A stretch of 51,276 nt of DNA from positions 1-51,276 of the forward strand of contig LBYF01000004.1 of NCBI GenBank assembly GCA_000996025.1, in the 5' to 3' direction. Positions 20,706 to 44,604 of the stretch are shown here, one piece after another. Numbering within the stretch: position 1 is the stretch's first letter; each line of letters opens with the position of its first letter. A program made the translations under genes and the position numbers. Under the pieces are notes generated by a model. It ran no database searches and was not told the DNA's origin. It saw only the letters and a program-made list of their open reading frames with translations. The stretch is from Parcubacteria group bacterium GW2011_GWA2_40_14. Lineage in GTDB: Bacteria > Patescibacteriota > Minisyncoccia > Phycocordibacterales > DATDWN01.

Positions 20706-20749
20706 CACATACACCTATCATACGCTATAGCGTATGATAGGTGTATGTG
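20706..20749. repeat. 44 bp perfect palindrome, family F1 (solo copy)
   Basis: cacatacacctatcatacgcta|tagcgtatgataggtgtatgtg. Confidence 0.95.
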
Positions 20750-21001: not shown

Positions 21002-21727
21002 ATGTCAAAGACACAGGAAACTTCAAATACGGAAAATAGCGTTGTGGACGCCCTTTTTTCTGTCGGGGCGCACTTTGGATTTGTAAAATCTAGACGACAT
21101 CCGTCGGCAAAACCCTTTATTTTTGGGGTTAAAAACAAGATTGAGATATTTGACCTAGAAAAGACCTCCGAAGCTCTCCACAGTGCCCTGGAATTTGTGG
21201 AGACTTTGGGTTCCAAAAATGCTATGATTCTATTTGTCAGTGGCAAAGAAGAGGCAAAAAAAGCCATCGTCTCTACGGCAGAAAGTATCACTGCCCCTTA
21301 TGTCGCTGGACGATTCATTGGAGGAACACTAACCAACTTCCCTGAAATCCGCAAACGAGTGGAAAAAATGGAGCGTCTCGTTTCAGAAAGGGATAAAGGT
21401 GAACTTGCAAAGTACACAAAGAAAGAACGGCTCTTGATTGACCGTGATATTGCCAAATTAAAGGAATTTTTCTTTGGCATAAGCATAATGAAAAATCTGC
21501 CCCAAGCTCTTTTTGTGATAGATGCCAAAGCAGAATCAATTGCAGTCAAAGAAGCCAAAAAAATAGGTATTCCTGTAGTTGCCCTCTGTGGCACAGACAA
21601 CGATTTAAGCCAAATTGATTATCCTATTCCAGGAAACGATTCATCAAAAGCAAGCATTGAATTTTTTCTCCAAAAAGTTGCAAATAGTTACAAAATTGGC
21701 CAACTAAAGAAAGAGGAAGTTAAATAA
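21002..21727 (+). CDS. rpsB: 30S ribosomal protein S2
   Basis: GAHFG, RFIGGTLTN, IPGNDSS. Confidence 0.97.
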   Translation: MSKTQETSNTENSVVDALFSVGAHFGFVKSRRHPSAKPFIFGVKNKIEIFDLEKTSEALHSALEFVETLGSKNAMILFVSGKEEAKKAIVSTAESITAPYVAGRFIGGTLTNFPEIRKRVEKMERLVSERDKGELAKYTKKERLLIDRDIAKLKEFFFGISIMKNLPQALFVIDAKAESIAVKEAKKIGIPVVALCGTDNDLSQIDYPIPGNDSSKASIEFFLQKVANSYKIGQLKKEEVK

Positions 21728-28804: not shown

Positions 28805-28822
28805 CTATTATATTATCAAGGA

Positions 28823-30070
28823 TTATTTTTTGTTTTTAATTTCGCTAGTAAGTTTTTCTAAAACTTCTTCTTTTGAAAATGCTCCGATTTGGCCGTTATC
28901 GCGGGATTCCAAAGTTACTTTATCCGCCTCAATTTCTTTATCGCCGATAACTATCCAGTACGGGATTTTGTTATTTTTTGCATCACGGACTTTTGAACCG
29001 AGGTTCTCATCAGCGAGATCTAGTTCTGCGCGAATATTATTTTCTCGTAACATGTCAAAGACGGTCTTTGACATTGTGTTGTGATTTTCCCGCACCGGAA
29101 TAACTTTAACTTGAACAGGTGACATCCATAGTGGCAAGTTACCTTCATAATGTTCCAGAAGGACGGCCACACAGCGTTCAATAGAGCCGGTAATGGCGGA
29201 ATGAATCATAACAATGCGTTCTTTTTCACCTTTTTCATTTACACAAGTTAGATCAAATTTTTCTGGCATATTCATATCGAGTTGGATTGTAGCCACTTGC
29301 CATTCACGCCCAGCAGAATTTTTTGCCATGAAATCTAATTTTGGTCCGTATAGAGCGGCTTCTCCTGGACCTTCAAAATAATCCGCGCCACGGGATTTAG
29401 CAATTTCTCGCAACTCACTTTCTGCAGTATCCCAGATCTCTTTTGTTCCAATATATTTATTCATATCTTTTGGATCTCGGAAAGAAAGGCGAACCTGAAG
29501 TGTAAATCCAAATATTTTATAAAATGTATCAACAATATCCCAAATTTTTAGAAATTCTTCCTTTATTTGGCTCGTGCGGCAGAAAACATGAGAATCATCT
29601 TGAGTAATAGACAAAACGCGAGTTAGTCCTCCGAGCTCTCCTGACTGTTCATCTCGATAGACCATTGTAGTCTCGGCATAGCGTTGCGGCATTTCCCGAT
29701 ATGAATGTGGTTTGCGGGCAAAAATCTGCGTATGATGCGGACAGTTCATCGGCTTCAAGGCATATTCTTTGCCTTCACGTGAGGTAATCCGGAAAAGCTC
29801 CTCGGAAAATTTATCCCAATGTCCGCTTGTTTCGTACAAGTCCTTTTTTGTGATGTGGGGAATAGTTACTTTACCGTAGTCATTTTCGGAACGTAATTCC
29901 CAGACGAATTTATCAAGTTCTTCGCGCAAAATATTTCCTTTTGGTGTCCACAGGGGTAGTCCTGAACCAACAAGATCTGAAAAAGTAAAGAGATCAAGCT
30001 CCTTACCTATTTTTCGGTGGTCATTCTTCTGCATCTCGCTTTCTTTCTCTTTTGCTTCGTCATTTTCCAT
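28823..30070 (-). CDS. thrS: Threonyl-tRNA synthetase lacking N-terminal TGS/editing domains
   Basis: Starts just before DHRKIGKELDLF; KPMNCPHH, YGPKLDF, TIQLD, H.AITGSIER; 415 aa. Confidence 0.95.
   Translation of the reverse strand: MENDEAKEKESEMQKNDHRKIGKELDLFTFSDLVGSGLPLWTPKGNILREELDKFVWELRSENDYGKVTIPHITKKDLYETSGHWDKFSEELFRITSREGKEYALKPMNCPHHTQIFARKPHSYREMPQRYAETTMVYRDEQSGELGGLTRVLSITQDDSHVFCRTSQIKEEFLKIWDIVDTFYKIFGFTLQVRLSFRDPKDMNKYIGTKEIWDTAESELREIAKSRGADYFEGPGEAALYGPKLDFMAKNSAGREWQVATIQLDMNMPEKFDLTCVNEKGEKERIVMIHSAITGSIERCVAVLLEHYEGNLPLWMSPVQVKVIPVRENHNTMSKTVFDMLRENNIRAELDLADENLGSKVRDAKNNKIPYWIVIGDKEIEADKVTLESRDNGQIGAFSKEEVLEKLTSEIKNKK
29052..29074. repeat. In-frame palindrome, family F6, inside thrS
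   Basis: atgtcaaagac-g-gtctttgacat. Confidence 0.85.
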
Positions 30071-30175
30071 GCTATTTAGAGTATCAGATTTATTTCAAAA
30101 AATCTAATTACTTTGACTTTATTGGGTGTTCATAATTAGCTTGACATAGAGATTTTGTGGCAGTACCATTAAATC

Positions 30176-30353
30176 AATCTCCGTAGTCTTTCCTTACTCC
30201 TCGGTTGGAGCTTCTTTTCTCCTTTCGAAGTCGTGTGGATACTAAGGAGACATCAACGAGGGTGTGCCGTGAGGGGGGTCTTGCGGCACATGCCTTCCAT
30301 TTTGAGATATGTTCTCATCCAATCCGTCCGAGATCTGCACTCGGCGGTTTTTT
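30176..30353 (+). ncRNA. Candidate sRNA of about 175 nt
   Basis: TTGACA(30141)-17-TACCAT promoter, 11 bp hairpin 30263-30290, terminator 30324-30353. Confidence 0.45.
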
Positions 30354-33300
30354 ACTCCATTGATTTGACTTTATCAATCAAAATGGACTTTCCGCTGTTG
30401 CGCGTGGAAAAAGCGCCTTTGACCACGATGCAACTTTCCTGGATAAGAATGTCTCGAAACTCCTCATAAACTTTTGGGAAAGCCACGGCCTCAATAGAGT
30501 CGGATAAGTCGGCAAGCTTTAAAAATATCATTCTGTCTCCATTTTTGGTAGTAACAGCTCGTATTTCTTCAATGATACCACCCAGAACAACAGAGTCTTT
30601 TTCTTTTGCCGTTTCTTTTATTTTTTTAATATCATTTTTTTTATCTTCAAGTTTACGCTTGAAACTGTCCAAAGGATGTCCGGAAATATAAAGGCCGAGA
30701 AGTTCCTTTTCCCAGACCAATTTATCTGCCGGATTTGATTTGGGGGCAGGTTCAAGATGTATTTCGTTAGCCTGCGATGTAGCTCCTCTCATGATAGAGA
30801 ATAATGAATCTTGATCACTCTCTTTTTTCTGTTCTTCTTTATGAAATTCAAGTAAGCGGTCTAAATTGAAAAGAAGTAGGGCTCTATAGGTTACATTACC
30901 GGAAGCAAAAGAATCCAAAGCCCCAGTTTTTATTAGTGATTCAAGAGATTTTTTATTTAAATTTTTGTCTTTGACACGGCTCAAGAAATCAGAAAATGAA
31001 GAGAAAGGTCCATTTGCTTTTCTCTCGGTAATGATTGTTTGACTGATACCTTCGCCGAAATTTTTAATGGTAGTCAGTCCAAAACGAATGATATTATCGA
31101 CTGGTGCCACAGGCGTCCCGACAACATCAGGCACCGGGACGGTGAAGCCTCCAAAAGACTGATTGACATCAGGGGGAAGGATTGCAATACCCATTCTTTT
31201 ACATTCGTTCACAATTTCGGCAATCATTACAATATCACCGGATTCTGCCGTCAGCACTGCTGACATATATATGGCAGGGAAGTTAGCTTTCATATAGGCA
31301 GTTTGATAAGCCACCTTTCCGTAGCTTGCGGCATGGGCTTTGTTGAAACCGTATCCTTGGAATGGCTCAAATAAATTCCATAACTCCTCGGCCTTTTTTG
31401 CAGTAGTCCCTCCGTGTTTCTGACATCCCATAACAAAGGTGACGTGTTGTTTAGCCATCTCTTCACGTATTTTTTTTCCAACTGCCTTGCGAAATTTATC
31501 AATTTCACCCCAACTATATCCAGCAACTTCTATAGCCGTCATAAGAAGGTCATCTTGGTAAACTAGCACCCCGTATGTCTTGTCCAAAAACTTTTTCATA
31601 TTTGGATGAGGATAAGTGATAGGTTTTGTTCCGTGTTTTCTGGCGATATATTCGTTTATGTTGTCCATAGGTCCAGGACGATATAGCGCGACCATCACAT
31701 TTATATCGTAAATAGTTGTAGGTTTAAGTTCCTTCAGCCAGCGCGTCATACCGTCCCCGTTTAGCTGAAATAGTCCTATAGTTTCACCACGAGCTAACAT
31801 TTCAAAAGTTTTTTTATCGTCCAGTGGAATTTTATCTAGGTTAATTTTTATTCCTTTTAGTTTTTCCGTGATTTTGACAGCATCTGCCAGAATAGAAAGG
31901 TTGCGTATTCCAAGAAAATCAAATTTCAACAAACCAACACCATCGTATTCGTCTGTCAGAGAGTACATATCATACTGTGTAATAATTTTTCCTTCTCCTT
32001 TTGGGTCGTATTGAATAGGACTGTAATCCGTTATTGGTGTAGGTGGGATAACTACTCCCGCGGCGTGCACCGAGATATGCCTAGCACAACCTTCTATTTT
32101 CCTCCCCATATCGATTATTTTTTTCGTTTCCGCGTCCTCATTATAAAGTTTTTTCAGTTCGGGATTTTCTTTCATTGCTCGCTCTAATGTCATCGGAAAG
32201 CCTTGCGCGCCCAAGGGTATCATTTTGGCGATGTTATCACCAACACCATACGGAAATCCAAGCGCACGCGTGACGTCTCTGACGGCGCCACGAGCTGCCA
32301 TAGTACCGAATGTACCTATCTGTACCACCTTATCTCCTCCGTGTTTTTTCTTTGCATACTCAATCATTTCATCACGACGGTTGTCTGCAATATCCATATC
32401 AATATCAGGGGCTTTTGGCCGTTCAGGATTTAGAAATCGTTCAAAAGGAAGATTAAATACGATAGGGTCAATTGTTGTGATGTAATTTAGATATGAAACC
32501 ATTGACCCGCCAGCTGATCCACGAGTAGTAGTCAGGATTCCATGCTCTCTTGCATAATGTAAAAGGTCGGAGACCACTAGAAAATACGGCGAGTATCCTT
32601 TATCGCGTATGATTTTCAGTTCGTACTCAATACGCTCTACTATTTCTCTAGTTTCTTTTAAATCGTGTCCGGCAAGTCCTTCGTATGTCAGACGTTTCAA
32701 CTCCTCATCGTGAGACAGACCGTTTTCTACAGTGTAAGTAGGCAAAATCCATTTTCCCAAATCAAGCGTGAGGTTGCATCTGTTAGATATTTTGAGGCAA
32801 TTCTCCAGTGCCTCTGGCATGTCTTTGAAATATTTTTCTGCTTGCGACGGAGTAATAAAAGAAAAATCTTCATCGCTAACTTCTATTTTTTCGTCGTTTT
32901 GAGATTGGATTGCAAGAAGAGTTTGTCTGGCCACACGGTCTTCTGGAGCAATATAATAAACATCGTGTGTGGCGACAATAGGTGTCGCAGTTTGTCTTGC
33001 AAACTGCAACAATATTGCCATATTTTCTTCGTGACCCTTGATTTCTGGATGATGAGTTATTTCCAAATAAAAATGGGACTCGCTGTCATAAGACCCCGCA
33101 ATATCGGCAGCGGGACGAAAAGTTTTTTTGTACCAATCCAGTCGTTCTTGAGCTTGTTCCATATTTCCCATTTTGAGCGATTGCAGTATATCACTTGAAA
33201 ACGAGGGGGCGATAGCGATAAGTCCCTCGTGATATTTTTCCAGAAGCTCGTGGTCAATGCGCGGTTTGTAATAAAAACCCTCCATATGAGCCAGTGTTAC

Positions 33301-33630
33301 AAGTTGAATCAAATTTTTGTATCCAACCTCATTTTCTACAAGCAAGACCAAACGATAACGTTCTTTATCAATGCCAGTTTGTTTGTCCTTTCGCGAACGA
33401 TAGGCGACATAAGCATCAATACCGAGAATTGGTTTTATATTAGCTTTTTTGCATGCTTGGTAAAACTCAATAGCTCCGTACAAGTTGGCGTTGTCAGTCA
33501 GAGCCAGAGCTTTCATACCATTTTTCTTTGCAGTGTCCACAAGCTCGTCAATTTTCGGCAAAGCGTTGAGCAGGGAGTAGTGAGAGTGGGTATGGAGATG
33601 GACGAATTTTGCTATTCTATCTTCTTGCAT
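30352..33630 (-). CDS. dnaE: DNA polymerase III alpha subunit
   Basis: PHP HLHTHSHYSLL, RGSAGGS, PDIDMD, KFDFLG, FNKAHAASY, OB fold. Confidence 0.97.
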   Translation of the reverse strand: MQEDRIAKFVHLHTHSHYSLLNALPKIDELVDTAKKNGMKALALTDNANLYGAIEFYQACKKANIKPILGIDAYVAYRSRKDKQTGIDKERYRLVLLVENEVGYKNLIQLVTLAHMEGFYYKPRIDHELLEKYHEGLIAIAPSFSSDILQSLKMGNMEQAQERLDWYKKTFRPAADIAGSYDSESHFYLEITHHPEIKGHEENMAILLQFARQTATPIVATHDVYYIAPEDRVARQTLLAIQSQNDEKIEVSDEDFSFITPSQAEKYFKDMPEALENCLKISNRCNLTLDLGKWILPTYTVENGLSHDEELKRLTYEGLAGHDLKETREIVERIEYELKIIRDKGYSPYFLVVSDLLHYAREHGILTTTRGSAGGSMVSYLNYITTIDPIVFNLPFERFLNPERPKAPDIDMDIADNRRDEMIEYAKKKHGGDKVVQIGTFGTMAARGAVRDVTRALGFPYGVGDNIAKMIPLGAQGFPMTLERAMKENPELKKLYNEDAETKKIIDMGRKIEGCARHISVHAAGVVIPPTPITDYSPIQYDPKGEGKIITQYDMYSLTDEYDGVGLLKFDFLGIRNLSILADAVKITEKLKGIKINLDKIPLDDKKTFEMLARGETIGLFQLNGDGMTRWLKELKPTTIYDINVMVALYRPGPMDNINEYIARKHGTKPITYPHPNMKKFLDKTYGVLVYQDDLLMTAIEVAGYSWGEIDKFRKAVGKKIREEMAKQHVTFVMGCQKHGGTTAKKAEELWNLFEPFQGYGFNKAHAASYGKVAYQTAYMKANFPAIYMSAVLTAESGDIVMIAEIVNECKRMGIAILPPDVNQSFGGFTVPVPDVVGTPVAPVDNIIRFGLTTIKNFGEGISQTIITERKANGPFSSFSDFLSRVKDKNLNKKSLESLIKTGALDSFASGNVTYRALLLFNLDRLLEFHKEEQKKESDQDSLFSIMRGATSQANEIHLEPAPKSNPADKLVWEKELLGLYISGHPLDSFKRKLEDKKNDIKKIKETAKEKDSVVLGGIIEEIRAVTTKNGDRMIFLKLADLSDSIEAVAFPKVYEEFRDILIQESCIVVKGAFSTRNSGKSILIDKVKSME

Positions 33631-33668
33631 GAGATGATTATAACATGAAACAAATTGTCGGAATTGAA

Positions 33669-33771
33669 GTGAGAAGTCGTGTTACGACTTCGCAAGTCGG
33701 AGCGTGACGACGCGAGACGGGGTAGCAGAATTTTTCAGCAGAAAAATATCTATGACCTGCTCCTGTAAGGA
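33669..33771 (+). repeat. Structured repeat, family F4
   Basis: See 7718-7815 and 9115-9200. Confidence 0.8.
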
Positions 33772-33804
33772 TGTGGTAACATTAACTTTTAATATAAATA
33801 TGGC

Positions 33805-34521
33805 ATGAAATTTATAGTTGGTATAGATGAAGTGGGAAGGGGACCTTTGGCTGGGCCAGTGACGGTTTGCGTCGTGGCTTGCGAAGAAAAAATGTACAAC
33901 AAATTGAAACGTGACAGACGACTTCCGCCTACAGGAAAAGATAGTAAAAAACTTTCCCCGCTTGCTCGGGAAAAGTACGCAACATATTTAAAATTATTAG
34001 TGTCAAAGACTGCCTTTGACATGCGGAGCCAAATGTCAAAGGCAGTCTTTGACACGGCAATAGTCCATATTTCAAATAAAGTCATTGATGCGAAGGGAAT
34101 TTCTTTTGCAATAAAAAAAGCAATTACCGAAGGGATTAAAAAGTTAAAACTCAATCCAAGAAATTGTCGGGTTTTACTAGACGGGGGACTAAAAGCTCCA
34201 AAACAATTTAAAAATCAGAGGACTATTAGAAAAGGTGATGAGAAAGAAAAAATCATTGCTTGGGCCTCAATTCTAGCAAAAGTTTCGCGAGATGAACTTA
34301 TGCACAGAGCCGCAAAAAAGTTTCCGCGTTATGGGTTTGAAAATCATAAAGGATATGGAACTCTGAAACACAGATTAGCTATTTCAAAGTATGGAATATC
34401 AGTTGTCCACAGGGTAAGCTATTGCAGAAATCTTTCCTTCCACATTTTCTTACAGTTACAGCTTGAACAAGGTGCCGGGAGAGTTATCCCGGTGCCTTTT
34501 ATTTTTGAGTGTAGTAGTTGA
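33805..34521 (+). CDS. rnhB: Ribonuclease HII
   Basis: GIDEVGRGPLAGPV, DSKKL, KGD, ASILAKV.RD, HKGYGT. Confidence 0.95.
   Translation: MKFIVGIDEVGRGPLAGPVTVCVVACEEKMYNKLKRDRRLPPTGKDSKKLSPLAREKYATYLKLLVSKTAFDMRSQMSKAVFDTAIVHISNKVIDAKGISFAIKKAITEGIKKLKLNPRNCRVLLDGGLKAPKQFKNQRTIRKGDEKEKIIAWASILAKVSRDELMHRAAKKFPRYGFENHKGYGTLKHRLAISKYGISVVHRVSYCRNLSFHIFLQLQLEQGAGRVIPVPFIFECSS
34000..34055. repeat. Inverted pair of F6 palindromes in frame inside rnhB
   Basis: gtgtcaaagactgcctttgacat-N10-atgtcaaaggcagtctttgacac (exact reverse complements). Confidence 0.9.
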
Positions 34522-34554
34522 TTATTCTAAACTAATGTGATAATGTTCCAAATT

Positions 34555-34794
34555 ATGGTTGTACGAATGCGTAGCACAAAAAGCCACCGCAACAACAGGC
34601 GTTCACACGACAGCTTGTCTTTTCCCGCTGTGACTATGGATAAAAATACAAATGTGCCACATTTGCGTCACAGAGCCAGTTTGGTTACCGGTCAGTACAA
34701 AGGAAGGGTAGTCATTGATTGTCAACGACCGAGCACCATTGAGCCCCTATGGTGCTTCGGCTCATTGACAAAATCGCGGGCGAAGCCAGAGTGA
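34555..34794 (+). CDS. rpmF: 50S ribosomal protein L32 with repeat-derived C-terminus
   Basis: MVVRMRSTKSHRNNRRSH...HLRHRA....GQYKGRVVID; upstream of nusB/rnc. Confidence 0.85.
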   Translation: MVVRMRSTKSHRNNRRSHDSLSFPAVTMDKNTNVPHLRHRASLVTGQYKGRVVIDCQRPSTIEPLWCFGSLTKSRAKPE

Positions 34795-34828
34795 GCCTTT
34801 CGCTGGAAAGGTGAGCGTCTCTGGAAAG
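34720..34828 (+). repeat. Partial F5 repeat overlapping rpmF 3' end
   Basis: TGTCAACGACC..GGCTCATTGACAAAATC..CAGAG..GCTGGAAA..CGTCTCTGGAAAG, as at 15113-15209. Confidence 0.85.
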
Positions 34829-34880
34829 TTGTTTTCTGGAGATTACCTATAGTATACTTAAAGAGTAGTTATTTACACAT

Positions 34881-35777
34881 ATGGCAAACAGGCACCTTTC
34901 CAGGTCAATAGTTCTCCAGTCACTTTTTGAGTGGGACTTTGGTTCCAAAAGTTCTTTTGATGCCATTTCTATTTTCAAACGCAACGCCGAAGAATTCGCT
35001 CCTGGTTTGTCGGATTTTTCTTTTATGGATACCTTGCTCAAAGGTGTTTTGGAAAAACAAAAAGACGTAGACCTAATCATAGAAAAAGCCGCTCCAGATT
35101 GGCCTATAGATAAAATAAGTGTCATAGACCGAAACATTTTGCGCATAGGACTTTATGAGCTTTTGTTTTCTGACCGTTCTCAAGTGCCACCAAAAGTGGC
35201 GATAAACGAAGCAATAGAGTTGTCTAAAACATTTGGCGGAGATACATCCTCAAAGTTCGTAAATGGCGTTTTGGGCGCAGTCTACAAAGAACTCGGCGAG
35301 CCAGGCAAGGATGAAACTGGAAAAGACAAGAAAAATAATGGAAGCGGAAATCTGCCTGTACCAGTGTTCTATTTGGGGGGAGCGGTAGTTTATGCAAAGG
35401 ATGGTGATGATATTTATCTTGCTCTTGTCCACGATGTTTTTGGTAGATGGACTTTATCAAAAGGTAAAATTGAAGAGAACGAAGATGTGGAGGTAGGCAC
35501 TATACGCGAGATAAAAGAGGAGCTAGGGCTAGATATAAAAATCAAAGAAAAACTCGGTGAAAATGAATATGTTGCTTACAATCCTGAAAAAGGAAAAATA
35601 AAAAAGCATGTCGTCTATTTTTTGGCAGAATCAAAATTTGTAGACCTCACTCCGGAAGCCAAAGGCGGGTTGGACGATGCCAAATGGTTCAAAATGGGGG
35701 ATATACTTGATTTAAATTTTTATAATGATATATTGCCGTTGGTAACAAAGGCCATTAATATACTCTTGAAGAAGTAG
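34881..35777 (+). CDS. nusB: NusB fused to a C-terminal Nudix hydrolase
   Basis: NusB motifs (DRNILR...YEL, VAINEAIEL.K.FG, FVNGVLG) plus a complete Nudix box GKIEENEDVEVGTIREIKEELGL. Confidence 0.9.
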   Translation: MANRHLSRSIVLQSLFEWDFGSKSSFDAISIFKRNAEEFAPGLSDFSFMDTLLKGVLEKQKDVDLIIEKAAPDWPIDKISVIDRNILRIGLYELLFSDRSQVPPKVAINEAIELSKTFGGDTSSKFVNGVLGAVYKELGEPGKDETGKDKKNNGSGNLPVPVFYLGGAVVYAKDGDDIYLALVHDVFGRWTLSKGKIEENEDVEVGTIREIKEELGLDIKIKEKLGENEYVAYNPEKGKIKKHVVYFLAESKFVDLTPEAKGGLDDAKWFKMGDILDLNFYNDILPLVTKAINILLKK

Positions 35778-35865
35778 AAAGTTCTTAAAGTTATAAAGTT
35801 CATAAAGTAAAAATGCAAATGCATCATACTTTACAAACTTTAAGAACTTTATAACTTTATAAACT
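35778..35865. repeat. Short-period (8-9 nt) tandem repeats arranged as an inverted pair
   Basis: aaagttctt/aaagttat/aaagttcat ... actttacaa/actttaaga/actttata. Confidence 0.7.
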
Positions 35866-35871
35866 AATACT

Positions 35872-36558
35872 ATGGATTTTAATGAATTTGAAAAAAATAC
35901 AGGATTGAATTTTAGCGACAAGAGTTTGTTACAACAAGCTTTTGTTCACCGTTCATATATAAATGAAAACAAGGTCTCTGGATTAAATCATAACGAGCGT
36001 TTGGAGTTTTTAGGGGATGCCGTGCTGGAACTTGTTATTACGGACTTTTTATACAAAAAATATACAGATAAAGCGGAGGGGGACTTGACCGCATACCGTT
36101 CTAGTCTAGTTAACGCTGATACATGTGCCGGTATAGCTAACCAACTTGGAATGGGAGACTACTTGCTTCTTTCAAAAGGGGAGAGCAAAGATGTCGGTCG
36201 CGCGCGTCAGTACATACTAGCAAACGCCCTAGAGGCGCTCATTGGTGCGATTTATATTGATCAAGGACTAGATAGCTCAAAAGATTTTATTGAACGAAAC
36301 TTTACTCCACTTATTGAAAAAATAATTTCCGCTGGAAGTTTCATAGATGCCAAGTCACTTTTTCAGGAAAAAGCTCAAGAGTTTGACGGCATTACTCCGT
36401 CATATAAAACGATGAAAGAAACTGGTCCCGACCATGAAAAGAAATTCACTGTCGGTGTTTACGTTGGTCGTGACCTCATCGCAACAGGTGAAGGCGAATC
36501 CAAACAAGACGCCGAGCAATCCGCCGCCCGTTCAGCTCTTTCAGCTCGTGGCTGGTAG
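35872..36558 (+). CDS. rnc: Ribonuclease III
   Basis: HNERLEFLGDAVL, EALIGAIY.D.G, dsRBD. Confidence 0.97.
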   Translation: MDFNEFEKNTGLNFSDKSLLQQAFVHRSYINENKVSGLNHNERLEFLGDAVLELVITDFLYKKYTDKAEGDLTAYRSSLVNADTCAGIANQLGMGDYLLLSKGESKDVGRARQYILANALEALIGAIYIDQGLDSSKDFIERNFTPLIEKIISAGSFIDAKSLFQEKAQEFDGITPSYKTMKETGPDHEKKFTVGVYVGRDLIATGEGESKQDAEQSAARSALSARGW

Positions 36559-36678
36559 TAATTTTGATAGACACTTATTTAATACTAAATAATAGAATAA
36601 TTATAGTGTCAACTTGACAATATATATATGCTAGCTTGATTTTGGAGCGTTATTTAAAAAAAGGAGGTAGTGATAAGT

Positions 36679-37437
36679 ATGGAAGAGAAAAAAGAAGTGC
36701 TTAGGGAACATCTTGAAGATTGCCTGAAGCATTTCGGCAAATGGTTCAATTCCAAAGTGCCCCGTCGTTCTCGTGGTCGGACCGAAGCCATGAAGCCGAT
36801 GGCCGAATTCCTTGGTGTTACGCCTGGCACTGTTCAGCGCATGCTTGACGATATGTCCCCTTTACCTAGAGGGGAAACTCATATCAAGCTTCTGTGTTAT
36901 CTGGACTTGCACGGTTACAAAATCATTGAATTTGAGAGAATGCCGAAAATTCGACGAAACTTCTCGGAGCTCATCGGATTCGAGCTTCTCTCTCCTGTCG
37001 AAGCGTCTAATCTGGTTGGGTATCACGATACTCAACAGATTTATCAAGCGATCTTCGGTAGAGAAGGAGTAAACAAGAAGAGAGAAAACTTGATGTGGAC
37101 TATCTGGAAGGAAAAAAGGGTAGAGCTTGAACGTAGGAAAAAAGATGCCTACGACACTCTCCGACTCGAAGTTCTTTTCAGTGTTCCGTTAGAAGTTGGC
37201 TCGGTTTCCGTCGCGGTTCAACAACTTGTCTTGTCAGCCAGTCAGCCGGTTATAACAAATGCCGGAATGCGGCTAGCTGTTTTGAACATACTGGAAAATT
37301 CAGTTCTCTTGTTTGAAGATAGTCTGTTTGACAGTCTTTCGGACAGTGAGCTATGTGAGTTTTCTCAACCAATTCTTCGACTATCGTCCCATTTGAGTAC
37401 CTTGAGTTCGAAGATTTTAACAAGGAAAGTTGGTTGA
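36679..37437 (+). CDS. Hypothetical protein with probable HTH (MAEFLGVTPGTVQRM)
   Basis: AGGAGG RBS; first gene of a tight 3-gene operon. Confidence 0.6.
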   Translation: MEEKKEVLREHLEDCLKHFGKWFNSKVPRRSRGRTEAMKPMAEFLGVTPGTVQRMLDDMSPLPRGETHIKLLCYLDLHGYKIIEFERMPKIRRNFSELIGFELLSPVEASNLVGYHDTQQIYQAIFGREGVNKKRENLMWTIWKEKRVELERRKKDAYDTLRLEVLFSVPLEVGSVSVAVQQLVLSASQPVITNAGMRLAVLNILENSVLLFEDSLFDSLSDSELCEFSQPILRLSSHLSTLSSKILTRKVG

Positions 37438-37440
37438 CGT

Positions 37441-37713
37441 ATGGAAAATGAGAGCTACACGGCTGTTGTCCAAAAAGTTATGGACAACGGCAAACATGGG
37501 CCGTACGTAGTAGCAACGAATGAAAAAATCGGGACAATCACTTTTTCTCTCGAACCGCTGGTTTGGCAGGAAAAAGGTAGGCCTGAAAGAGGAAACATCG
37601 TTGTTCTCTCCGAGATTCGCAAAAAGCGCGCCGGTTGGCGTGCCAACAGTGGGCGGTTCTTTCGACCGTCCGACGAGCAATCAGAAACCAAACATAGCAA
37701 GGAGTTAAAATGA
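37441..37713 (+). CDS. Small hypothetical protein, possibly OB-fold-like
   Basis: 90 aa, beta-rich; overlaps next start (ATGA). Confidence 0.6.
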   Translation: MENESYTAVVQKVMDNGKHGPYVVATNEKIGTITFSLEPLVWQEKGRPERGNIVVLSEIRKKRAGWRANSGRFFRPSDEQSETKHSKELK

Positions 37714-38519
37714 GAGTGAAGAAAACCCAGAAGATTAAACTGACGGACATCAAGCCGAACTTGTTTGTCCGTCAGGAACTGGATACCGACCATGTCATCT
37801 ATCTCGCTCAACTGATTGAGGGCGGAACAGAGATGAGGGACCGAATCAAGGTCACGGAAGATTTGATCATTGTCGACGGTCGTCATCGCAAGGAAGCTTT
37901 TGACCTTGTCGGCACAAAGGAAATTGAAGTTGATGTTGTTCATAACATGGACGAGGTCACTCTGATTTCCGAGGCCTACAAAGCCAATACCGGTGGCTCC
38001 AAACCGCCCACTCCAGCCGACACTGAACATACCGTCATGCTCTTGCTTCAGCGTAGTCAGGGTATGAAGCTTATCGGAGAACTTCTTGCCTTGCCGACCA
38101 GTATGGCCCGCAAATATGTCAACGAAGTGAAGTCGCGAATGAATCGCGCTCAGCTTCAGCGGGCCACGGAGGCTGTGACTGAGGGTGGACTGAACATCAA
38201 ACAAGCTGCCGAGCAGTACCAAGTGGATGCGGAGAAATTGAAGGAAGTTCTTTCTGGACACAAACGTAAGACCAAAAACGGTGTTGCCGAAGTTCAGAAG
38301 CATCTCTCCAGGTTTTACAACAGCATCGGGACAAAGAATGCTCGCATGATCAGGTCTCTCATCGAGAAGTTTCAGGACGGCGACGTGACTGAAAAACAAA
38401 TGAAGGAGCTTTTCGCGCACATCGAACGTCTGCAGAAAAAGTCTGCGCGGGTCACCGCCGACTGGAAGAGTCGTTTTGAAGCGGTAACAACCAAGTCCAA
38501 GGATTCTCCCGCCGCCTAG
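37710..38519 (+). CDS. ParB/Srx N-terminal domain protein with HTH and helical C-terminus
   Basis: IKLTDIKPN...RQEL...IIVDGRHRKEA ParB-N motif. Confidence 0.8.
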   Translation: MRVKKTQKIKLTDIKPNLFVRQELDTDHVIYLAQLIEGGTEMRDRIKVTEDLIIVDGRHRKEAFDLVGTKEIEVDVVHNMDEVTLISEAYKANTGGSKPPTPADTEHTVMLLLQRSQGMKLIGELLALPTSMARKYVNEVKSRMNRAQLQRATEAVTEGGLNIKQAAEQYQVDAEKLKEVLSGHKRKTKNGVAEVQKHLSRFYNSIGTKNARMIRSLIEKFQDGDVTEKQMKELFAHIERLQKKSARVTADWKSRFEAVTTKSKDSPAA

Positions 38520-38528
38520 TTCTGTCTC

Positions 38529-38565
38529 AAACCCCTATCGCAGGAAGCGATAGGGGTTTCTTTTT
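38529..38565 (+). terminator. Intrinsic terminator
   Basis: aaacccctatcgc-aggaa-gcgataggggttt + T-tract. Confidence 0.85.
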
Positions 38566-38596
38566 ATATTTTCTTAAAAAATTTTGATATACTATA

Positions 38597-38875
38597 TTGG
38601 TGAAAAAAATAGACACTGTTTCAAAAAATCAGCAGGAAATTGTCATTTATAAAAGCGGGCGGGGGAATGTAACGCTTCGGGCTGATATAAGTAAAGATAC
38701 GATTTGGGCAACACTTAATCAGATTGCCGAGCTTTTTGGTGTTCAAAAAGCGGCTGTTTCCAAGCATATAAGTAACATATTTGACTCTGGAGAACTAGCT
38801 AAAAAAGCAACTGTTTCCATTTTAGAAACAGTTCAAAAAGAAGGAAACAGAGAGGTTTTACGTAAAATCAGATAG
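38597..38875 (+). pseudogene. Truncated RhuM/Fic-associated DNA-binding protein
   Basis: EIVIY..G...DTIWAT..QIAELFGV...VSKHI.NIF..GEL....TV...ETVQ.EG.REV.R; stops just before the usual YYNLDAIISVGYRVNS. Confidence 0.75.
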
Positions 38876-39194
38876 GATATTTAAAAAGAATTATTGTGCT
38901 TAGAAAAAGTAAAAATGAATATGAGACGATGATTAATCCAGTAATCTTACAAAGAAAATTTCCATTTTTATATTTAGAGAGATGTTATAGTATAAAAGGG
39001 TTAATATATTGTTAAAAGATATTTGTGGGTTATGGTGAGATATCAAAATTTGGATGGTGTTTGGCAGACGAGAATTTTGAGAGGACTGAGCGGAATATAT
39101 CATGAAATTGACCATATTAACGGCATTACAGTTTCGAAAATTGGATTTCGTATTTTATAGTTTTTTACTATTTTTGCATAATAATAATTTTCTC

Positions 39195-39234
39195 CATACA
39201 TTTAACAAACGCTATAGCGTTTGTTAAGTGTATG
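39195..39234. repeat. 40 bp palindrome F1 (1 mismatch), 30 bp downstream of the PaaX/Cas2-like gene
   Basis: catacatttaacaaacgcta|tagcgtttgttaagtgtatg. Confidence 0.95.
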
Positions 39235-39264
39235 AAGAAATATACGTAAATTGTTAAATAAAAG

Positions 39265-39840
39265 TTAGTTATCTAACAATAGATTGAAGTATTTTTTGTA
39301 ACTTTTATCATATTCAATGGAATCAACAATTAAATATAAAAGATCTTTGCCGATTTTAAAATCAGCCTTTAGTAGAGTCACAAAGTCTTCACAGTCGTAA
39401 GGATATATCCACACGCTGTCTTGAATTCGAAGGAAGCCGATATGTAATAGGGTGTGACGGACTTTATCCCGAAGTGATTTTCTGGTTTCTGGTATGTCAA
39501 ATATAAGCATGCGCCATTTACCATCCCATTTTTTTGGCTTATCTATTTTCCAATCTTTTAGTTCTAGAGATTCTAGTACAGTTTGCCCTTTATCTGTTAG
39601 TTTAACAAATTTACCATCATATTTTAGCAACCCATCTTTGACCAACCTATCTCTGGACCGAGCCATGATTTCCTTTTGCCTTTTTCCTGGAGTAATTCCA
39701 AACGATTTTAGATATTGAAGTGAATTTGGTGCTACCATAGCAAGAGTTAAAAAACCACCTATCTTAACAGCAGTGAGTACGGCTTTTCGTATGTCATTTT
39801 TCGATTTTCTTTTACGGTATCTTTCTTCGATTGTTCCCAT
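39265..39840 (-). CDS. wHTH + PaaX-central/Cas2-like domain protein
   Basis: RL...GLL....VKLTDKG wing, then WDGKWRMLIFDIPE..R..LRDK.R..L...GF..IQDSVW. Confidence 0.85.
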   Translation of the reverse strand: MGTIEERYRKRKSKNDIRKAVLTAVKIGGFLTLAMVAPNSLQYLKSFGITPGKRQKEIMARSRDRLVKDGLLKYDGKFVKLTDKGQTVLESLELKDWKIDKPKKWDGKWRMLIFDIPETRKSLRDKVRHTLLHIGFLRIQDSVWIYPYDCEDFVTLLKADFKIGKDLLYLIVDSIEYDKSYKKYFNLLLDN

Positions 39841-39888
39841 ATATTTTAGAGATATTTTGGATAATTATTTCTTCAAACACATTTTATC

Positions 39889-39930
39889 ACATACACTTAT
39901 AATACGCTATAGCGTATTATAAGTGTATGT
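39889..39930. repeat. 42 bp perfect palindrome F1, upstream of the PaaX/Cas2-like gene
   Basis: acatacacttataatacgcta|tagcgtattataagtgtatgt; abuts a minus-strand TGaTAAAAT -10. Confidence 0.95.
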
Positions 39931-40079
39931 CTATATGTATATTAAATATGTGAATTGTTTCTATTTTGGAACAAGTTTAGTTAGTGCAATATCTTTGCAT
40001 ACTGAAGCTGAATGAGCAATGTGCAAAAAATGCACATTGCTCATGTTTTGATATACTAATGAGAACTTTAATTTATATT

Positions 40080-42347
40080 ATGTATCTTAAATCTATTGAA
40101 CTAACTGGGTTTAAATCTTTTGCCAAGAAGAGCGAGTTGACTTTTTCGTCGCCGATTTCGGCTATTGTCGGGCCGAATGGTTCGGGCAAGAGTAATATTG
40201 CCGAAGCTTTTAGTTTTGTTTTAGGTGAGCAATCCATTAAGTCATTGCGGGGTAAAAAAGGTGAGGATTTGATTTGGAATGGTTCGACTGACTCACCACG
40301 AGCGGGGAGGGCTTCAGTTAAAGTTGTTTTTGACAACAGTACATATTTTCTTCCGTTGGATTATGAAACAGTTACAGTGGAGCGGGTAGTGCATCGCGAT
40401 TCTGTAAACGAGTACATAATAAACAGCTCGCAAGTGCGGCTGCGAGATGTGGTGGAACTTTTGGCCAGCGCCCATATTGGCTCATCCGGACACCATATTA
40501 TTTCACAAGGCGAAGCGGATAGGATTCTGAACTCTAGTGGGAAAGAGCGCAAGAGCATGATAGAGGACGCATTAGGATTGAAAATGTATCAATATAAAAA
40601 GCAGGAGAGTGAAAGGAAATTAGAAAAGACTCGGGAAAATATTGTACAGGTAGAATCTTTGCGACGAGAAATCTCGCCTCATATAAAATTTTTGAAAAAA
40701 CAAGTTGAGAAAGTTGAGAAATCTTTGCAAATGAAACAAGAGCTGGAAGCCAAAGCTCTGGAGTATTGCAATCGTGAAGACAAATATGTCAAACGGACAG
40801 AAGAAAGACTAACAAGAGAAAAAAATCCGCTTATACAAAAAGAAAGAGAATTACATTACGAGTTGGAAAAAGCAAAAGCAGTTTTGGAAATGGCAAAACA
40901 CAAGGACGAAAAGAGTTCCAAACTGATTGAACTTGAAAAAAGCTTACATGAATTGCGGGATGAAAAAGATAATCTGTTTCGCGAAGCTGGGCGTTTGGAC
41001 GGAGAAATTACGGCGTTTGTGAGGATGGTTAAAAAGCAGGAGGAAGTAGAGCATTTGGATGCTCATAAGACAGTAACACTTGCTTCAGTGGAAATATTAA
41101 GAGAGCAAATTACTGCTAAAATCCAATCCGCAAAGAATTTAGACGATATATCGTCTATTTTGAAAATCTTTGATGAAGTCACAGGGCTTCTTTCGGACTT
41201 TGTAGACAACAACAAAAACAAAATAGACAATTCTCTTATTGCCGATGTGCAAAAAGATATTGAAAACCTAAAATCGGAGAAAAAGAGAATTGAAAAGTCG
41301 CTCCAAGAAGTCAAGAGAAAAGAAGGGGAATTGTCGCATCAATACAGCCAATTAAAAAGCGCAATTGAAAAAGAAAAAGATTCAAATCGAGATGCAGAGA
41401 AAGCTGTTTTTCGGATAATGGCAGAATCGCAAGAGGTGCGGTCAGGGTTGCAAATAATTAGGAGAGAAGAAGAAACATTGCATCTGGTCCGAGAGGATTT
41501 CAAAAGAGAACTTTCGGAGCTTGGTATGATGCTCGGAGCTCATTTTTTGCAGTTTAATAATTTGTCGTTTGATTATGATGAACCACGTATTAACCAGGAG
41601 GAGCGTCGGCGGGCAATAGAGAAAATAAAAATCCGTTTGGAAGAGGTCGGCGGAGCAGGTGGAGCTGATGTTTTGAAAGAATACACAGAGGCAAGCGAGA
41701 GAGATACCTTTTTAGAAAAAGAGCTGGCAGATTTGGAACAATCGGCAAATTCTTTGACAGAACTTATTCTAGATTTGGATACGCGACTTTCTACAGAATT
41801 TAAATTGGGAATAGAAAAAATCAACACTCAATTCAAAGAATTTTTTGCACTTATGTTTGGTGGTGGCGAGGCAAAATTGTCTGTTACAGTACCAGTAAAG
41901 CGAAAGAAAAAAGATACAGACGATTTATTTGAAAAATCAGAAGATGAAATTGAGGAGGAGCTTGCCCTGCGTAATCTTGATGAAGCAGGGGAGGAAGGGA
42001 TTGATATTGAGGTTAATTTGCCCAAGAAAAAGGTTAAAGGGCTTATGATGCTCTCTGGTGGTGAAAGAGCTCTTACATCAATCGCCCTTCTTTTTGCTCT
42101 GTCTCAAGTCAATCCGCCACCTTTTATTATTTTGGATGAAACAGACGCCGCTTTGGATGAAGCCAATTCTAAAAAATACGCTGACATGGTGGAAAATCTC
42201 TCAAAATTTTCACAGCTCATCGTTATCACTCACAATCGCGAAACAATGTCTCGCGCTGGTATTCTCTACGGTGTGACAATGGGTATGGGTGGTGGCTCAA
42301 AACTTCTCTCGGTTTCTTTTGATACTGCAGTAGCTGTTGCAAAATAA
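40080..42347 (+). CDS. smc: Short SMC-family chromosome segregation ATPase (755 aa)
   Basis: YLKSIELTGFKSF, GPNGSGKSN, coiled coils, LSGGE, LDETDAALDEAN, ITH. Confidence 0.9.
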   Translation: MYLKSIELTGFKSFAKKSELTFSSPISAIVGPNGSGKSNIAEAFSFVLGEQSIKSLRGKKGEDLIWNGSTDSPRAGRASVKVVFDNSTYFLPLDYETVTVERVVHRDSVNEYIINSSQVRLRDVVELLASAHIGSSGHHIISQGEADRILNSSGKERKSMIEDALGLKMYQYKKQESERKLEKTRENIVQVESLRREISPHIKFLKKQVEKVEKSLQMKQELEAKALEYCNREDKYVKRTEERLTREKNPLIQKERELHYELEKAKAVLEMAKHKDEKSSKLIELEKSLHELRDEKDNLFREAGRLDGEITAFVRMVKKQEEVEHLDAHKTVTLASVEILREQITAKIQSAKNLDDISSILKIFDEVTGLLSDFVDNNKNKIDNSLIADVQKDIENLKSEKKRIEKSLQEVKRKEGELSHQYSQLKSAIEKEKDSNRDAEKAVFRIMAESQEVRSGLQIIRREEETLHLVREDFKRELSELGMMLGAHFLQFNNLSFDYDEPRINQEERRRAIEKIKIRLEEVGGAGGADVLKEYTEASERDTFLEKELADLEQSANSLTELILDLDTRLSTEFKLGIEKINTQFKEFFALMFGGGEAKLSVTVPVKRKKKDTDDLFEKSEDEIEEELALRNLDEAGEEGIDIEVNLPKKKVKGLMMLSGGERALTSIALLFALSQVNPPPFIILDETDAALDEANSKKYADMVENLSKFSQLIVITHNRETMSRAGILYGVTMGMGGGSKLLSVSFDTAVAVAK

Positions 42348-42374
42348 CAGGTGATGGTGTAGCAATAAACACTC

Positions 42375-42399
42375 TTCCCCTAGGTTACACCTAGGGGAA
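42375..42399. terminator. Hairpin between convergent smc and rnr
   Basis: ttcccctaggt-tac-acctaggggaa. Confidence 0.55.
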
Positions 42400-42405
42400 A
42401 TTCTT

Positions 42406-44358
42406 TTATACCAACGCGTAATCCAAAACTCGTTTTTCTAAATCTGCTGAAACAACTTTAAATCGGACGGTGTCGCCAAGGGTGAATTTCTTTCCAGTTT
42501 TTTCGCCCTTGATTGTGTAGTTTTTCTCATCCAATGTGTAGAAATCATTTCCGAGGTCGCGTAGTTTTATCATACCCTCGCATTTTGTTTCTTTTTCTTC
42601 TATATAGATACCCCATTCAACCACGCCGGTTATTGTTCCATCAAACTCTTTACCAATGTGGTCTTGCATGTATTCAACCTGTTTGTACTTTATGGACGCC
42701 CGTTCTGCATCAGAGGCTTTTTTCTCCAGCTCGGACGATGCCAGGCAAATCCGTTCAAACTTTTCGTATTCGTTCTGTTCTATTTTTCCGCCTTTTAATT
42801 CTCGTTCAAGAAAACGATGTACGATGAGGTCTGGATATCTGCGAATAGGGGAGGTGAAGTGTGTGTAATATGTAAAGGCCAATCCGAAATGACCGATATT
42901 TTTTGTTGAATAGGCTGCCTTTGCCATACTACGGATTGTGGCTGTTTTTATAAGCTCCTCGTTTGGAGTTCCTTCAACTTCCTTTAAGAGTGTATTGATG
43001 TCTTTTGACATGACAGCACCTTCTTTGTTTTTCAAATTAAAACCAAGGGCCTTTAGAAATGTTACAAGATTTTCTATCCGCTCTTTGTCAGGTTTTGCAT
43101 GGATACGGTACACAGATTGCTTTCCTTTTCCCATCAAATTTTTATTTTGTGACATGAAAATAAATTTGGCCACAGCACGGTTGGCAAGGAGCATGAATTC
43201 TTCCACCAGTTTGTGTGTATCTAGACGGCTTTTTTTGTACACTCGTAAGGGTTTACCAGCACTATCTAATTCAAATTTTACTTCGTCTTTTTCAAAATTG
43301 ACTGCGCCGTTTATTGAGTTTGCTTTCTGTAGTTTTTTGGCAATCTCATTTAGTTTTAGCAGTTCTATTTTGTGAGGACCTGTCTGTTTTCCGATTATCA
43401 CATCATTTGCCTCTTCGTATGTAAATCGTTTATCGGAATGTATAACAGTACGACCAAACCACTCATCCAAAACTTTTCCTTGATTATCCATTTTGAAAAC
43501 TGCAGAAAATGTAAATTTATCTTCGTTTGCGTTCAGGGAACACAGGTCGTTTGAAAGAATCTCTGGCAACATCGGTATAGTACGGTCCACTAGGTAAACC
43601 GAAAGTCCGCGTTTCTCCGACTCATGGTCAAGTGGAGTGTTTGGTGTGACAAAGTATGACACGTCGGCAATGTGTACACCTATTTCAAATGTATTGTTTC
43701 CAAGGTCTACAAAAGAAATAGCATCGTCAAAATCTTTTGCATCAAACGGGTCTATTGTCATGGTTGTGACATTTCTCATGTCCCTACGCTTTGCAATTTC
43801 TGTCGTAGCTGTCGCCTTATAAGCTCCGCGAATTTTCTCCGCTTCACGTTCCACTTCGGCAGGGAATTCAATTCTGAAGCCCTTTTCCAAGACAATAGCT
43901 TCCATTTCGGTATTATTCTCGCCCGCTTTGCCTATGACCTTTATCACTTCGCCTTCCAGCGTGTCCCATTTTTTTATTTTAACGAGCACCTTATCATCTT
44001 CAGAGACTTCGCCAACACTCTGGTGTATGGCGGAAAGAAAAATATCCACATATAGCCGCTTATCGTCTGGCACCACAAAAACTTTTTCCTCACCTGTGTC
44101 AAGGACAGTCCTTGACACAGTGCCGACAAACTCATCGCGGGCGCGAGTGATTATTTTTATCACTTTGCCTTGCTCACGGTTTTTAATTTTCTCCCCGGTC
44201 AGTTCAATCTCCACAATGTCACCGTGAAAAGCTCGATTGATATTTTCTGGCTGTATTTCAACTGAATTCTCCCTGTCTTTTTTTTCCGGCTCTCTATCAA
44301 AAAAACCAACACCTTTTGTGTTGATGCTTATTGGACCAATAAAAACCTCTTTATTCAT
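42406..44358 (-). CDS. rnr: Ribonuclease R (RNB + S1, no N-terminal HTH)
   Basis: TIDPFDAKDFDDA, HIADVS, EEFMLLAN, HFTSPIRRYPDL, S1 domain. Confidence 0.95.
   Translation of the reverse strand: MNKEVFIGPISINTKGVGFFDREPEKKDRENSVEIQPENINRAFHGDIVEIELTGEKIKNREQGKVIKIITRARDEFVGTVSRTVLDTGEEKVFVVPDDKRLYVDIFLSAIHQSVGEVSEDDKVLVKIKKWDTLEGEVIKVIGKAGENNTEMEAIVLEKGFRIEFPAEVEREAEKIRGAYKATATTEIAKRRDMRNVTTMTIDPFDAKDFDDAISFVDLGNNTFEIGVHIADVSYFVTPNTPLDHESEKRGLSVYLVDRTIPMLPEILSNDLCSLNANEDKFTFSAVFKMDNQGKVLDEWFGRTVIHSDKRFTYEEANDVIIGKQTGPHKIELLKLNEIAKKLQKANSINGAVNFEKDEVKFELDSAGKPLRVYKKSRLDTHKLVEEFMLLANRAVAKFIFMSQNKNLMGKGKQSVYRIHAKPDKERIENLVTFLKALGFNLKNKEGAVMSKDINTLLKEVEGTPNEELIKTATIRSMAKAAYSTKNIGHFGLAFTYYTHFTSPIRRYPDLIVHRFLERELKGGKIEQNEYEKFERICLASSELEKKASDAERASIKYKQVEYMQDHIGKEFDGTITGVVEWGIYIEEKETKCEGMIKLRDLGNDFYTLDEKNYTIKGEKTGKKFTLGDTVRFKVVSADLEKRVLDYALV
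44094..44120. repeat. In-frame F6 palindrome inside rnr
   Basis: ctgtgtcaaggac-a-gtccttgacacag. Confidence 0.85.
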
Positions 44359-44604
44359 TTGATGATGAGTATAACAGATTATTGACCTTAATCCAATCTT
44401 TTGCTACTATCACAGAACCTCGAACAATAAATAATGAGTAAGTATAAACGGCAGAATTCTGAGGAAAAAATAGAGGATGAGACAGGAAGCCTAGTTCAAG
44501 CTAAGCTGAGTGGCGAAACTCTATTTTTTACCAGAATTCTGATGTTTAGACACTCAAGCGCATCTCATATTTATTACTAGCGTTTATTTTTGAGAGAGGT
44601 TCTT

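Follow-up and report, generated by a model that had tools for sequence, protein, structure and literature searches.

The stretch of DNA studied here, a whole contig of 51,276 nucleotides from Parcubacteria group bacterium GW2011_GWA2_40_14 (the window; contig C4 of an assembly of 637,511 bases in 26 contigs, the genome being labelled G000), carries a short palindrome written in frame into three housekeeping genes. This palindrome is very probably the repetitive extragenic palindrome (REP) of a REP/REPIN-RAYT system, in which REPIN stands for an inverted doublet of REPs and RAYT for the REP-associated tyrosine transposase; the RAYTs of this system are encoded outside the window. Such systems are known, but the form of this one is unusual, being almost wholly intragenic: in a genome of 0.64 Mb it sits almost entirely inside essential genes and is translated, whereas REPs and REPINs are otherwise viewed as extragenic. 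The original prediction, made from the letters of the window, took the palindrome for a coding-compatible selfish element. This was essentially right, the partner being two RAYT-type genes of the Y1 transposase superfamily elsewhere in the genome.

A REP family and its transposases

The full form of the palindrome is R-TGTCAARG-N5-CYTTGACA-Y. Its enrichment over the whole genome, on which the original prediction depended, is clear: the conserved core TGTCAARG-N5-CYTTGACA occurs in 26 exact copies in 637.5 kb, or one copy per 24.5 kb, where a third-order Markov model (which served as null together with dinucleotide shuffles) predicts none. When the distance between the two arms was scanned from 0 to 40, matches were found at 5 alone. 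R and Y are complementary in 25 of the 26 copies; the flanks of the palindrome hold R at -1 and Y at +1 alone, and TGTC sits within the stem. Over the 16 defined positions, 26 copies have no mismatch, none has one, one has two and eight have three, as against 0, 0.1, 1.2 and 12.7 in 40 simulations under the third-order Markov null. The genome thus contains perfect copies and background, with no intermediates. The 5-nt loops fall into more than ten types, one 21-mer being seen ten times with both orientations counted. Four doublets with a 12-nt spacer are located in the genes for RecJ, UvrB, RnhB and LeuS, and a fifth pair of REPs is 29 nt apart.

Four copies on contig C5 (at 3686/4343 and 20062/20720) bracket, in inverted orientation, two homologous stretches of about 650 bp (flanked spans 3686-4363 and 20062-20740) that are 81.5% identical over 573 nt. 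Each stretch contains a transposase gene, RAYT-1 or RAYT-2 (Table 1). The two proteins are 81% identical and are therefore not products of recent transposition. Both match Pfam Y1_Tnp (PF01797), with 46.5 and 46.0 bits at a cut-off of 23, and the NCBIfam model of IS200 gives 16.6 bits, far below the 70.5 bits obtained with REP_Tyr_transpos (NF047646, REP-associated tyrosine transposase). An H-F-H motif (H85-F-H87) and a tyrosine (Y145), which we take to be the catalytic residues of a Y1/HUH transposase, are invariant in all 11 aligned homologues. A structure model of the RAYT, based on 11 homologues (pLDDT 80, pTM 0.81), finds its best fold match, with E 6e-7 and TMt 0.74, in 4er8, the Escherichia coli TnpA-REP in complex with a REP hairpin. 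The transposases of IS608, ISDra2 and IS200 follow with E about 1e-3, the level at which 2a6m, 2xm3 and 2vjv are matched. The earlier remark that no full copy of the palindrome is intergenic is correct for the window and fails for the genome, where these four copies flank transposase genes.

Within G000, RAYT-1 is flanked by REPs of the AGG/CCT type and RAYT-2 by REPs of the AAG/CTT type. We considered these types as cognate REPs of two RAYT lineages and found no support for the idea, as RAYT-1, RAYT-2 and the RAYT of genome G015 form one clade whatever the type.

The same association was found across the genus. Forty-one genomes were surveyed with the relaxed pattern TGTCAA-N9-TTGACA, for which reversed-pattern controls give 0-1 matches. 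Eleven of them contain at least four copies: 26 in G000, 22 in G005, 19 in G044, 13 in G010, 10 in G015, 9 in G049, 8 in G019, 6 each in G017, G042 and G047, and 4 in G002. The other 30 genomes hold 0-2 copies (18 with none, 12 with one or two). Y1 genes were detected by protein search in 21 of the 41 genomes. All 11 genomes with four or more copies have a Y1 match, and the 20 genomes lacking such a match carry 0-2 copies; since kin are not independent, no statistical test was applied to the relation of copy number to the Y1 gene. Close RAYT orthologues (62-85% identity) are present in G015, G044, G042, G047, G005, G049 and G002. At seven of the eight loci with a close RAYT (at least 62% identity), a TGTCAA..TTGACA palindrome is found on both sides of the gene, and at the eighth, in G049, a variant with one mismatch stands upstream. 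The dominant loop variant differs from genome to genome. Outside the genus, a single copy was found in one of 16 sampled families of the order. At loci L002, L003, L004, L005, L006 and L008 (in G015, G044, G042, G047, G005 and G002, respectively) the downstream REP encodes the last residues of the transposase (e.g. ...MSRGVLDI) or its TGA stop.

The flanking of Y1 genes in several species, together with the co-occurrence of Y1 genes and palindrome copies, argues for a REP/REPIN-RAYT system and not for a parS-type site. The original prediction had as its other proposal a chromosome-organisation site (parS/matS type) with a ParB-like protein or SMC as its binding partner. Such sites would likewise be palindromic, dispersed and intragenic, and an SMC_N protein is indeed encoded in the window (39984-42347). 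The motif is however patchy within a single genus, with no relaxed copy in 18 of the 41 genomes; its copy number tracks the Y1 gene and its loops are genome-specific. A hairpin, and not two half-sites, is indicated by the R/Y change, which is paired, and by the unconstrained loop of 5 nt, and none of 45 window open reading frames (ORFs) matches a ParB family at E <= 1e-5. We consider this explanation extremely improbable.

REPs translated within housekeeping genes

In the window, the pattern TGTCAARGACNGTCYTTGACA occurs four times, at 29053, 34001, 34034 and 44097, with 0, 1, 1 and 0 mismatches, respectively, and was not matched in any of 100 dinucleotide shuffles of the window. Pattern search and translation reproduced the coordinates, the frame and the peptides that had been read from the sequence before, and Pfam agrees with the identities then given to the host genes, ThrS, RnhB and Rnr (Table 1). 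The peptides MSKTVFD, VSKTAFD, MSKAVFD and VSRTVLD share a common frame relative to the palindrome. They correspond to residues 333-339 of ThrS, inside the anticodon-binding domain, to residues 81-87 of Rnr and, for the doublet, to residues 66-83 of RnhB, which read VSKTAFD-MRSQ-MSKAVFD. The two REPs of rnhB are exact reverse complements 12 nt apart, as had been noticed. Folded as single-stranded DNA, the singlets have energies of -8.3 and -12.5 kcal/mol, and the rnhB doublet forms a 23-bp hairpin of -27.1 kcal/mol (z -10.8). The C-terminus of RnhB (34444-34521) extends about 25-30 residues beyond those of 29 genus orthologues (238 vs 197-224 aa).

Table 1. REPs, their host genes, orphan half-sites and RAYT genes. 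Positions refer to the window unless a contig is named.
Feature	Position	Strand	Remarks
REP singlet in thrS	29053..29073	.; read on minus as MSKTVFD	replaces YAKKVFD-type helix segment, same length
REPIN in rnhB	34001..34054	.	REPs 34001-34021 and 34034-34054, inverted, 12-nt spacer; 54 nt = 18 codons
REP singlet in rnr	44097..44117	.; read on minus as VSRTVLD	loop between cold-shock-type domains
thrS, host gene	28823..30070	minus	415 aa, short form; Pfam tRNA-synt_2b and HGTP_anticodon
rnhB (RNase HII), host gene	33805..34521	plus	238 aa; Pfam RNase_HII, residues 5-208
rnr (RNase R/II family), host gene	42406..44358	minus	650 aa; Pfam OB_RNB, CSD2, RNB, S1
Orphan half-site, rpsB start	21003..21012	plus	outside the element; chance-level frequency
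Orphan half-site in dnaE	30967..30976	plus	outside the element; chance-level frequency
RAYT-1 and RAYT-2 genes	C5:3717-4334 and C5:20093-20716		outside the window; 205 and 207 aa; bracketed by the palindrome

The two half-sites listed in Table 1 had been noted beside the full copies. They exist; a role in the system was rejected, since orphan half-sites number 34, 10, 30 and 6 genome-wide as compared with 25.0, 10.2, 22.9 and 9.1 expected from the third-order Markov model, which is chance level.

Among the 22 copies that do not flank RAYT genes, 20 are located in genes identified by Pfam: those for an RsmE-type methyltransferase, PGK, RecJ (two copies), UvrB (two), CysS (two), ThrS, RnhB (two), Rnr, a thioredoxin-reductase-like protein (TrxB-like), PolA, ArgS, AlaS, a class-V aminotransferase (two) and LeuS (two). 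Another copy lies in an ORF of 293 aa conserved within the genus. The last is in UvrC, where the frame is open for 32 codons upstream and the segment read in it presumably represents a GIY-YIG-like motif. About 84% of the genome is occupied by ORFs of at least 100 aa, so landing in genes is to be expected; it is the survival there, and the single frame, that need explanation.

One frame dominates, in agreement with the bias noted originally. Of these 22 copies, 21 are read xTG TCA ARG NNN NNC YTT GAC, the exception being TGT CAA GGG GCA TCC TTG ACA (CQGASLT). The third frame of the palindrome holds TGA. With the UvrC copy excluded, 20 of 21 copies use the same one of the two stop-free frames (P = 1e-5). 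The translated REP is [M/V]-S-[K/R]-x-x-[F/L]-D, its Ser, Asp, Lys/Arg and Phe/Leu codons are invariant, and the coding strands carry both loop orientations. Invariant codons, both loop orientations and a single frame point to a constraint at the level of DNA. The recurrence of one heptapeptide pattern in many proteins could also be taken for a peptide motif selected at the protein level. To this we ascribe next to no probability: synonymous positions do not vary, either strand of the same DNA is read, one copy stands in another frame and four copies are intergenic. Moreover, the orthologue comparisons yielded no case, of the kind that the original prediction had set against itself, of the same peptide kept in different codons in place of the palindromic DNA.

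Host sites compared among species and strains

Seventeen of the 18 occupied sites were compared with orthologues, six genes with 30 genus rows each and the others with 4-5, and the net change was taken as the number of residues relative to the commonest orthologue length. It is 0 for ThrS, Pgk and AlaS, -1 for the second aminotransferase copy, +3 for ArgS and CysS-2 (the second CysS copy), +4 for the RsmE-type protein and PolA, +5 for Rnr and the TrxB-like protein, and about +6 for the first aminotransferase copy. The doublets (RnhB, RecJ, UvrB, LeuS) and CysS-1 sit in linkers of variable length. In ThrS all 30 genus rows are of equal length at the site, with no gap. The earlier guess, that the REP of thrS replaces sequence of the same length and those of rnhB and rnr look like insertions, is borne out by ThrS and by the net gain in Rnr; in RnhB the doublet occupies a length-variable loop. 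The usual ThrS sequence (YAKKVFD type) matches the REP at 12 of 21 nt and is, in our reading of the alignment, itself a weak palindrome. At the aminotransferase site, which is IscS-like, the orthologues have a conserved Cys-Gln pair whose codons already read TGTCAR, and the left arm TGTCAA coincides with them.

Same-length substitutions at sites resembling the motif, such as those of ThrS and the aminotransferase, and the strong frame bias would also be produced by an uptake-signal-like motif spreading through biased uptake and recombination (molecular drive). The analogy with uptake sequences had been drawn in the original prediction and proves a poor fit. The density of copies is low, the palindrome is strict with a single spacing, it brackets a transposase gene in several species and is absent from many sister species. 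Intermediates with one or two mismatches, 0 and 1 copies against 0.1 and 1.2 under the null, are missing. We regard such a motif as very improbable.

REPs recur at orthologous sites. The ThrS site is occupied in G000, G005, G044 and G049 (4 of 30 rows), the Rnr site in G000 and G044 (2 of 30), the Pgk site in G000 and G049 (2 of 6 rows, that is, G000 and a panel of five genomes), and the RnhB site in G000, G019, G015, G044 and G049 (5 of 30). The ArgS site is occupied in G000, G044, G005, G004, G010 and G049 (6 of 30), the copies of G010 and G049 having one arm mismatch each. In all, 5 of the 17 G000 sites are shared exactly with any panel genome, and the REP-free genomes G008 and G041 have no REP at any site where they were compared. 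Loops at shared sites are species-specific: the ThrS copy of G005 bears the dominant loop of G005, and the ArgS copy of G049 the arm variant that flanks the RAYT of G049. The arms are identical between species despite host proteins of 50-85% identity.

In the RnhB loop, five further rows hold palindromes of other families, and that of G009, ATCCAAGG-N5-CCTTGGAT, also flanks the Y1 gene of G009 itself. Unrelated short palindromes share loops beside or instead of the TGTCAA-type REP in L138 (UvrB of G044), L174 (TrxB-like protein of G044) and L015, L019 and L031 (RnhB of G019, G044 and G049). These protein loops look like common landing places for several hairpin families.

Gene trees were built with the REP columns left out; they are quick trees with some long branches, and in neither of the following do the REP-bearing rows form one clade. 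The ThrS tree requires four changes, of which at least three are forced by well-supported branches (p 5.9e-37 in the approximately unbiased (AU) test), and the ArgS tree five, of which at least two are forced (AU p 3.8e-7). For the substitution in ThrS, it is implausible that several losses each restored the common sequence, and repeated gain is the better reading. The genus tree of ThrS (28823-30070, L043-L072) displays two deep groups, seven rows having 73-85% identity with G000 and most of the remaining ones about 50%; this hints at gene replacement in one lineage.

Strain variation was followed in contigs of four public DNA runs over 28500-44500, no RNA run being among those listed; as contigs drop rare variants, they say nothing on mobility. 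Wherever covered, the REPs of the window are unchanged except in one X17 contig, where 34007 A>G and 34015 T>C are the only differences listed within a kilobase (a single contig, depth about 5). The two positions pair within the first REP of rnhB, and the change yields the exact sequence of the first RecJ REP. This paired switch of the arms fits, weakly, a paired change or replacement more than two independent errors. Among the joints listed for the four runs, none removes a REP. An apparent joint of 15 kb, between 29074 and 44097, was dismissed; one of its sides holds only 22 letters, and it reflects the similarity of the REPs.

It could be argued that the hairpins are domesticated, being kept by a benefit to the host (e.g. 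at replication forks or in mRNA) with the RAYT as their maintenance enzyme. No arm mismatch occurs in 26 copies while the loops vary among more than ten types, the arms stay identical across species as described above, and those parts of the REPIN literature on which we draw favour long vertical persistence. Against this, 18 of the 41 genus genomes manage with no copy at all, the occupied sites vary by genome, few being shared exactly with the panel, and both loop orientations relative to transcription are found. Domestication therefore appears unlikely to us.

Known systems and a possible mode of spread

The likeness to REP/BIME elements (BIME, bacterial interspersed mosaic element) and REPINs with their RAYT transposases, as in E. 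coli (TnpA-REP, 4er8) and Pseudomonas (REPINs, PMC3116915), lies in a short palindrome repeated tens of times, doublets whose inverted halves form a long hairpin, a repeat-bracketed Y1/HUH gene, genome-specific variants and the fold match to 4er8. The present system differs in that its non-flanking copies are all intragenic and translated, replacing resident codons, and in having 26 copies only, in an ultra-small host genome. With IS200/IS605 elements it shares the transposase superfamily, with the fold matches given above, and hairpin recognition; apart from the low score of the IS200 model, the difference is that the multiplying unit here is a 21-nt hairpin and not the gene.

Several observations weigh against the assignment to REP/REPIN-RAYT systems. 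REPINs and RAYTs are described as extragenic in the part of PMC3116915 on which we draw, whereas here four of the 26 copies flank RAYT genes and all of the remaining 22 lie in ORFs. The palindrome is fully symmetric, and neither a GTAG nor a CGTC tag stands unpaired at its end. RAYTs have been described as occurring in single copy, and this genome has two paralogues. The 70.5 bits obtained with REP_Tyr_transpos are below the curated cut-off of 80, and a phmmer search of the RAYT against PDB sequences found no relative. Genome G004, 78% complete, carries two copies of the palindrome and no Y1 match. The class of +7 residues, expected of a clean 21-nt insertion, is represented at 0 of 11 singlet sites. 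Finally, the absence of decayed copies from the mismatch spectrum fits neither simple birth-and-decay nor neutrality.

Intragenic REPs were found in the literature in one paper alone. Di Nocera et al. 2013 (PMC3733652), in the part of the text used here, report REPs lying wholly within ORFs of known proteins in several species, both as singlets and as dimers, many of them in tRNA synthetases and in genes of DNA repair or replication. Our genome carries its REPs in genes of the same classes. The large families of that paper are extragenic with a minority of copies inside genes; in our genome 22 of 26 copies are intragenic. The REP classes described in that part have an unpaired GTAG or CGTC tag; the CGTC class, with stems of 8-9 bp, loops of 4-5 nt and a tag that is sometimes TGTC, is without a transposase, whereas in our case TGTC is paired and a RAYT is attached. 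Same-length substitution is not described in that part of the paper, and sharing of the same site is described there for recB of two Xanthomonas species alone. Our literature searches yielded no paper on such systems with a RAYT in Patescibacteria, and an archaeal RAYT is mentioned in one preprint. Rickettsia palindromic elements (RPEs), as cited in the same part of PMC3733652, are in-frame palindromic repeats in still-functional genes of a reduced genome, and the comparison with them in the original prediction was a fair one. RPE-1, for which no transposase is known, exceeds our palindrome several times in length, and the likeness is functional and by description only.

The biochemistry of TnpA-REP and of IS200/IS605 offers a basis for a mechanism by analogy, according to which the RAYT presumably catalyses the spread of REPs. 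It would recognise the hairpin of 8-bp arms in single-stranded DNA and cut and rejoin beside it, a process that would spread singlets (21 nt, or seven codons) as well as inverted doublets, i.e. REPINs. Probably it also rewrites its targets, be they resident sequences or hairpin-like ones. Since a genome of 0.64 Mb is dense in genes and has little extragenic DNA, selection would then let survive only those copies that keep the frame, do not use the third one with its TGA, and sit in segments of housekeeping proteins that tolerate them. Such selection would also explain why the same few sites are struck repeatedly.

The lack of a +7 class, the same-length substitutions and the lack of any decayed copy, taken together, suggest an exchange of hairpin cassettes or a templated rewriting of resident hairpins. 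We infer that REPs arrive by replacement and not by clean insertion, and the perfect arms are probably kept by ongoing rewriting. Purifying selection on the arms, and insertions that were trimmed afterwards, may account for these findings instead. It may be imagined, though we would sooner expect the idea to prove wrong, that the RAYT, beyond inserting hairpins, swaps them as cassettes: any hairpin of suitable geometry would be cut at both of its ends and a REP put in its place. Such an exchange would overwrite quasi-palindromic coding sequence with no change in length (ThrS, Pgk, AlaS), trim loops, in keeping with the lack of singlets that add 7 codons, and keep each resident copy updated to the current variant of the genome. 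It would thereby give one cause for the absence of decay in 26 copies, for the species-specific loops at orthologous sites and for the paired A-T to G-C switch in one strain contig. The process would amount to gene conversion driven by a transposase, preserving length, acting on essential proteins and recurring at the same codons in separate lineages. Length-preserving, recurrent overwriting, if real, would be a novel route by which a selfish element alters conserved proteins, and would open a direct way to study the movement of REPs by RAYTs, a question not yet settled. In practical terms, the segments of 7 and 18 codons can confuse sequence alignment, tree building and the delimitation of domains in genomes of the group.

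A second REP family, TTGCTAACAC-YSR-GTGTTAGCAA, is present in 13 copies (C6:9770-10537 and 11 further places), none of them in the window. In further support of the REP/REPIN-RAYT reading, it brackets, in inverted arrangement, a third, distant Y1 gene (C6:9833-10456), whose product has about 30% identity with those of RAYT-1 and RAYT-2. Long ORFs contain about seven copies of this family, which are read as LLTPSVSK or LLTLGVSK.

Two minor features of the window may be added. The spacer 35778-35871, between a NusB/NUDIX gene and the RNase III gene, consists of a long inverted array of short AT-rich words. Its summed contig depth is 24-194 as compared with about 5, many loose ends occur there in the four runs, and no tRNA was found in it. 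Just upstream of gyrB, the ORF 25171-25695 (174 aa) matches the C-terminal part of RVT_1 only (E 1.4e-10) and is possibly a fragment of a retroelement.

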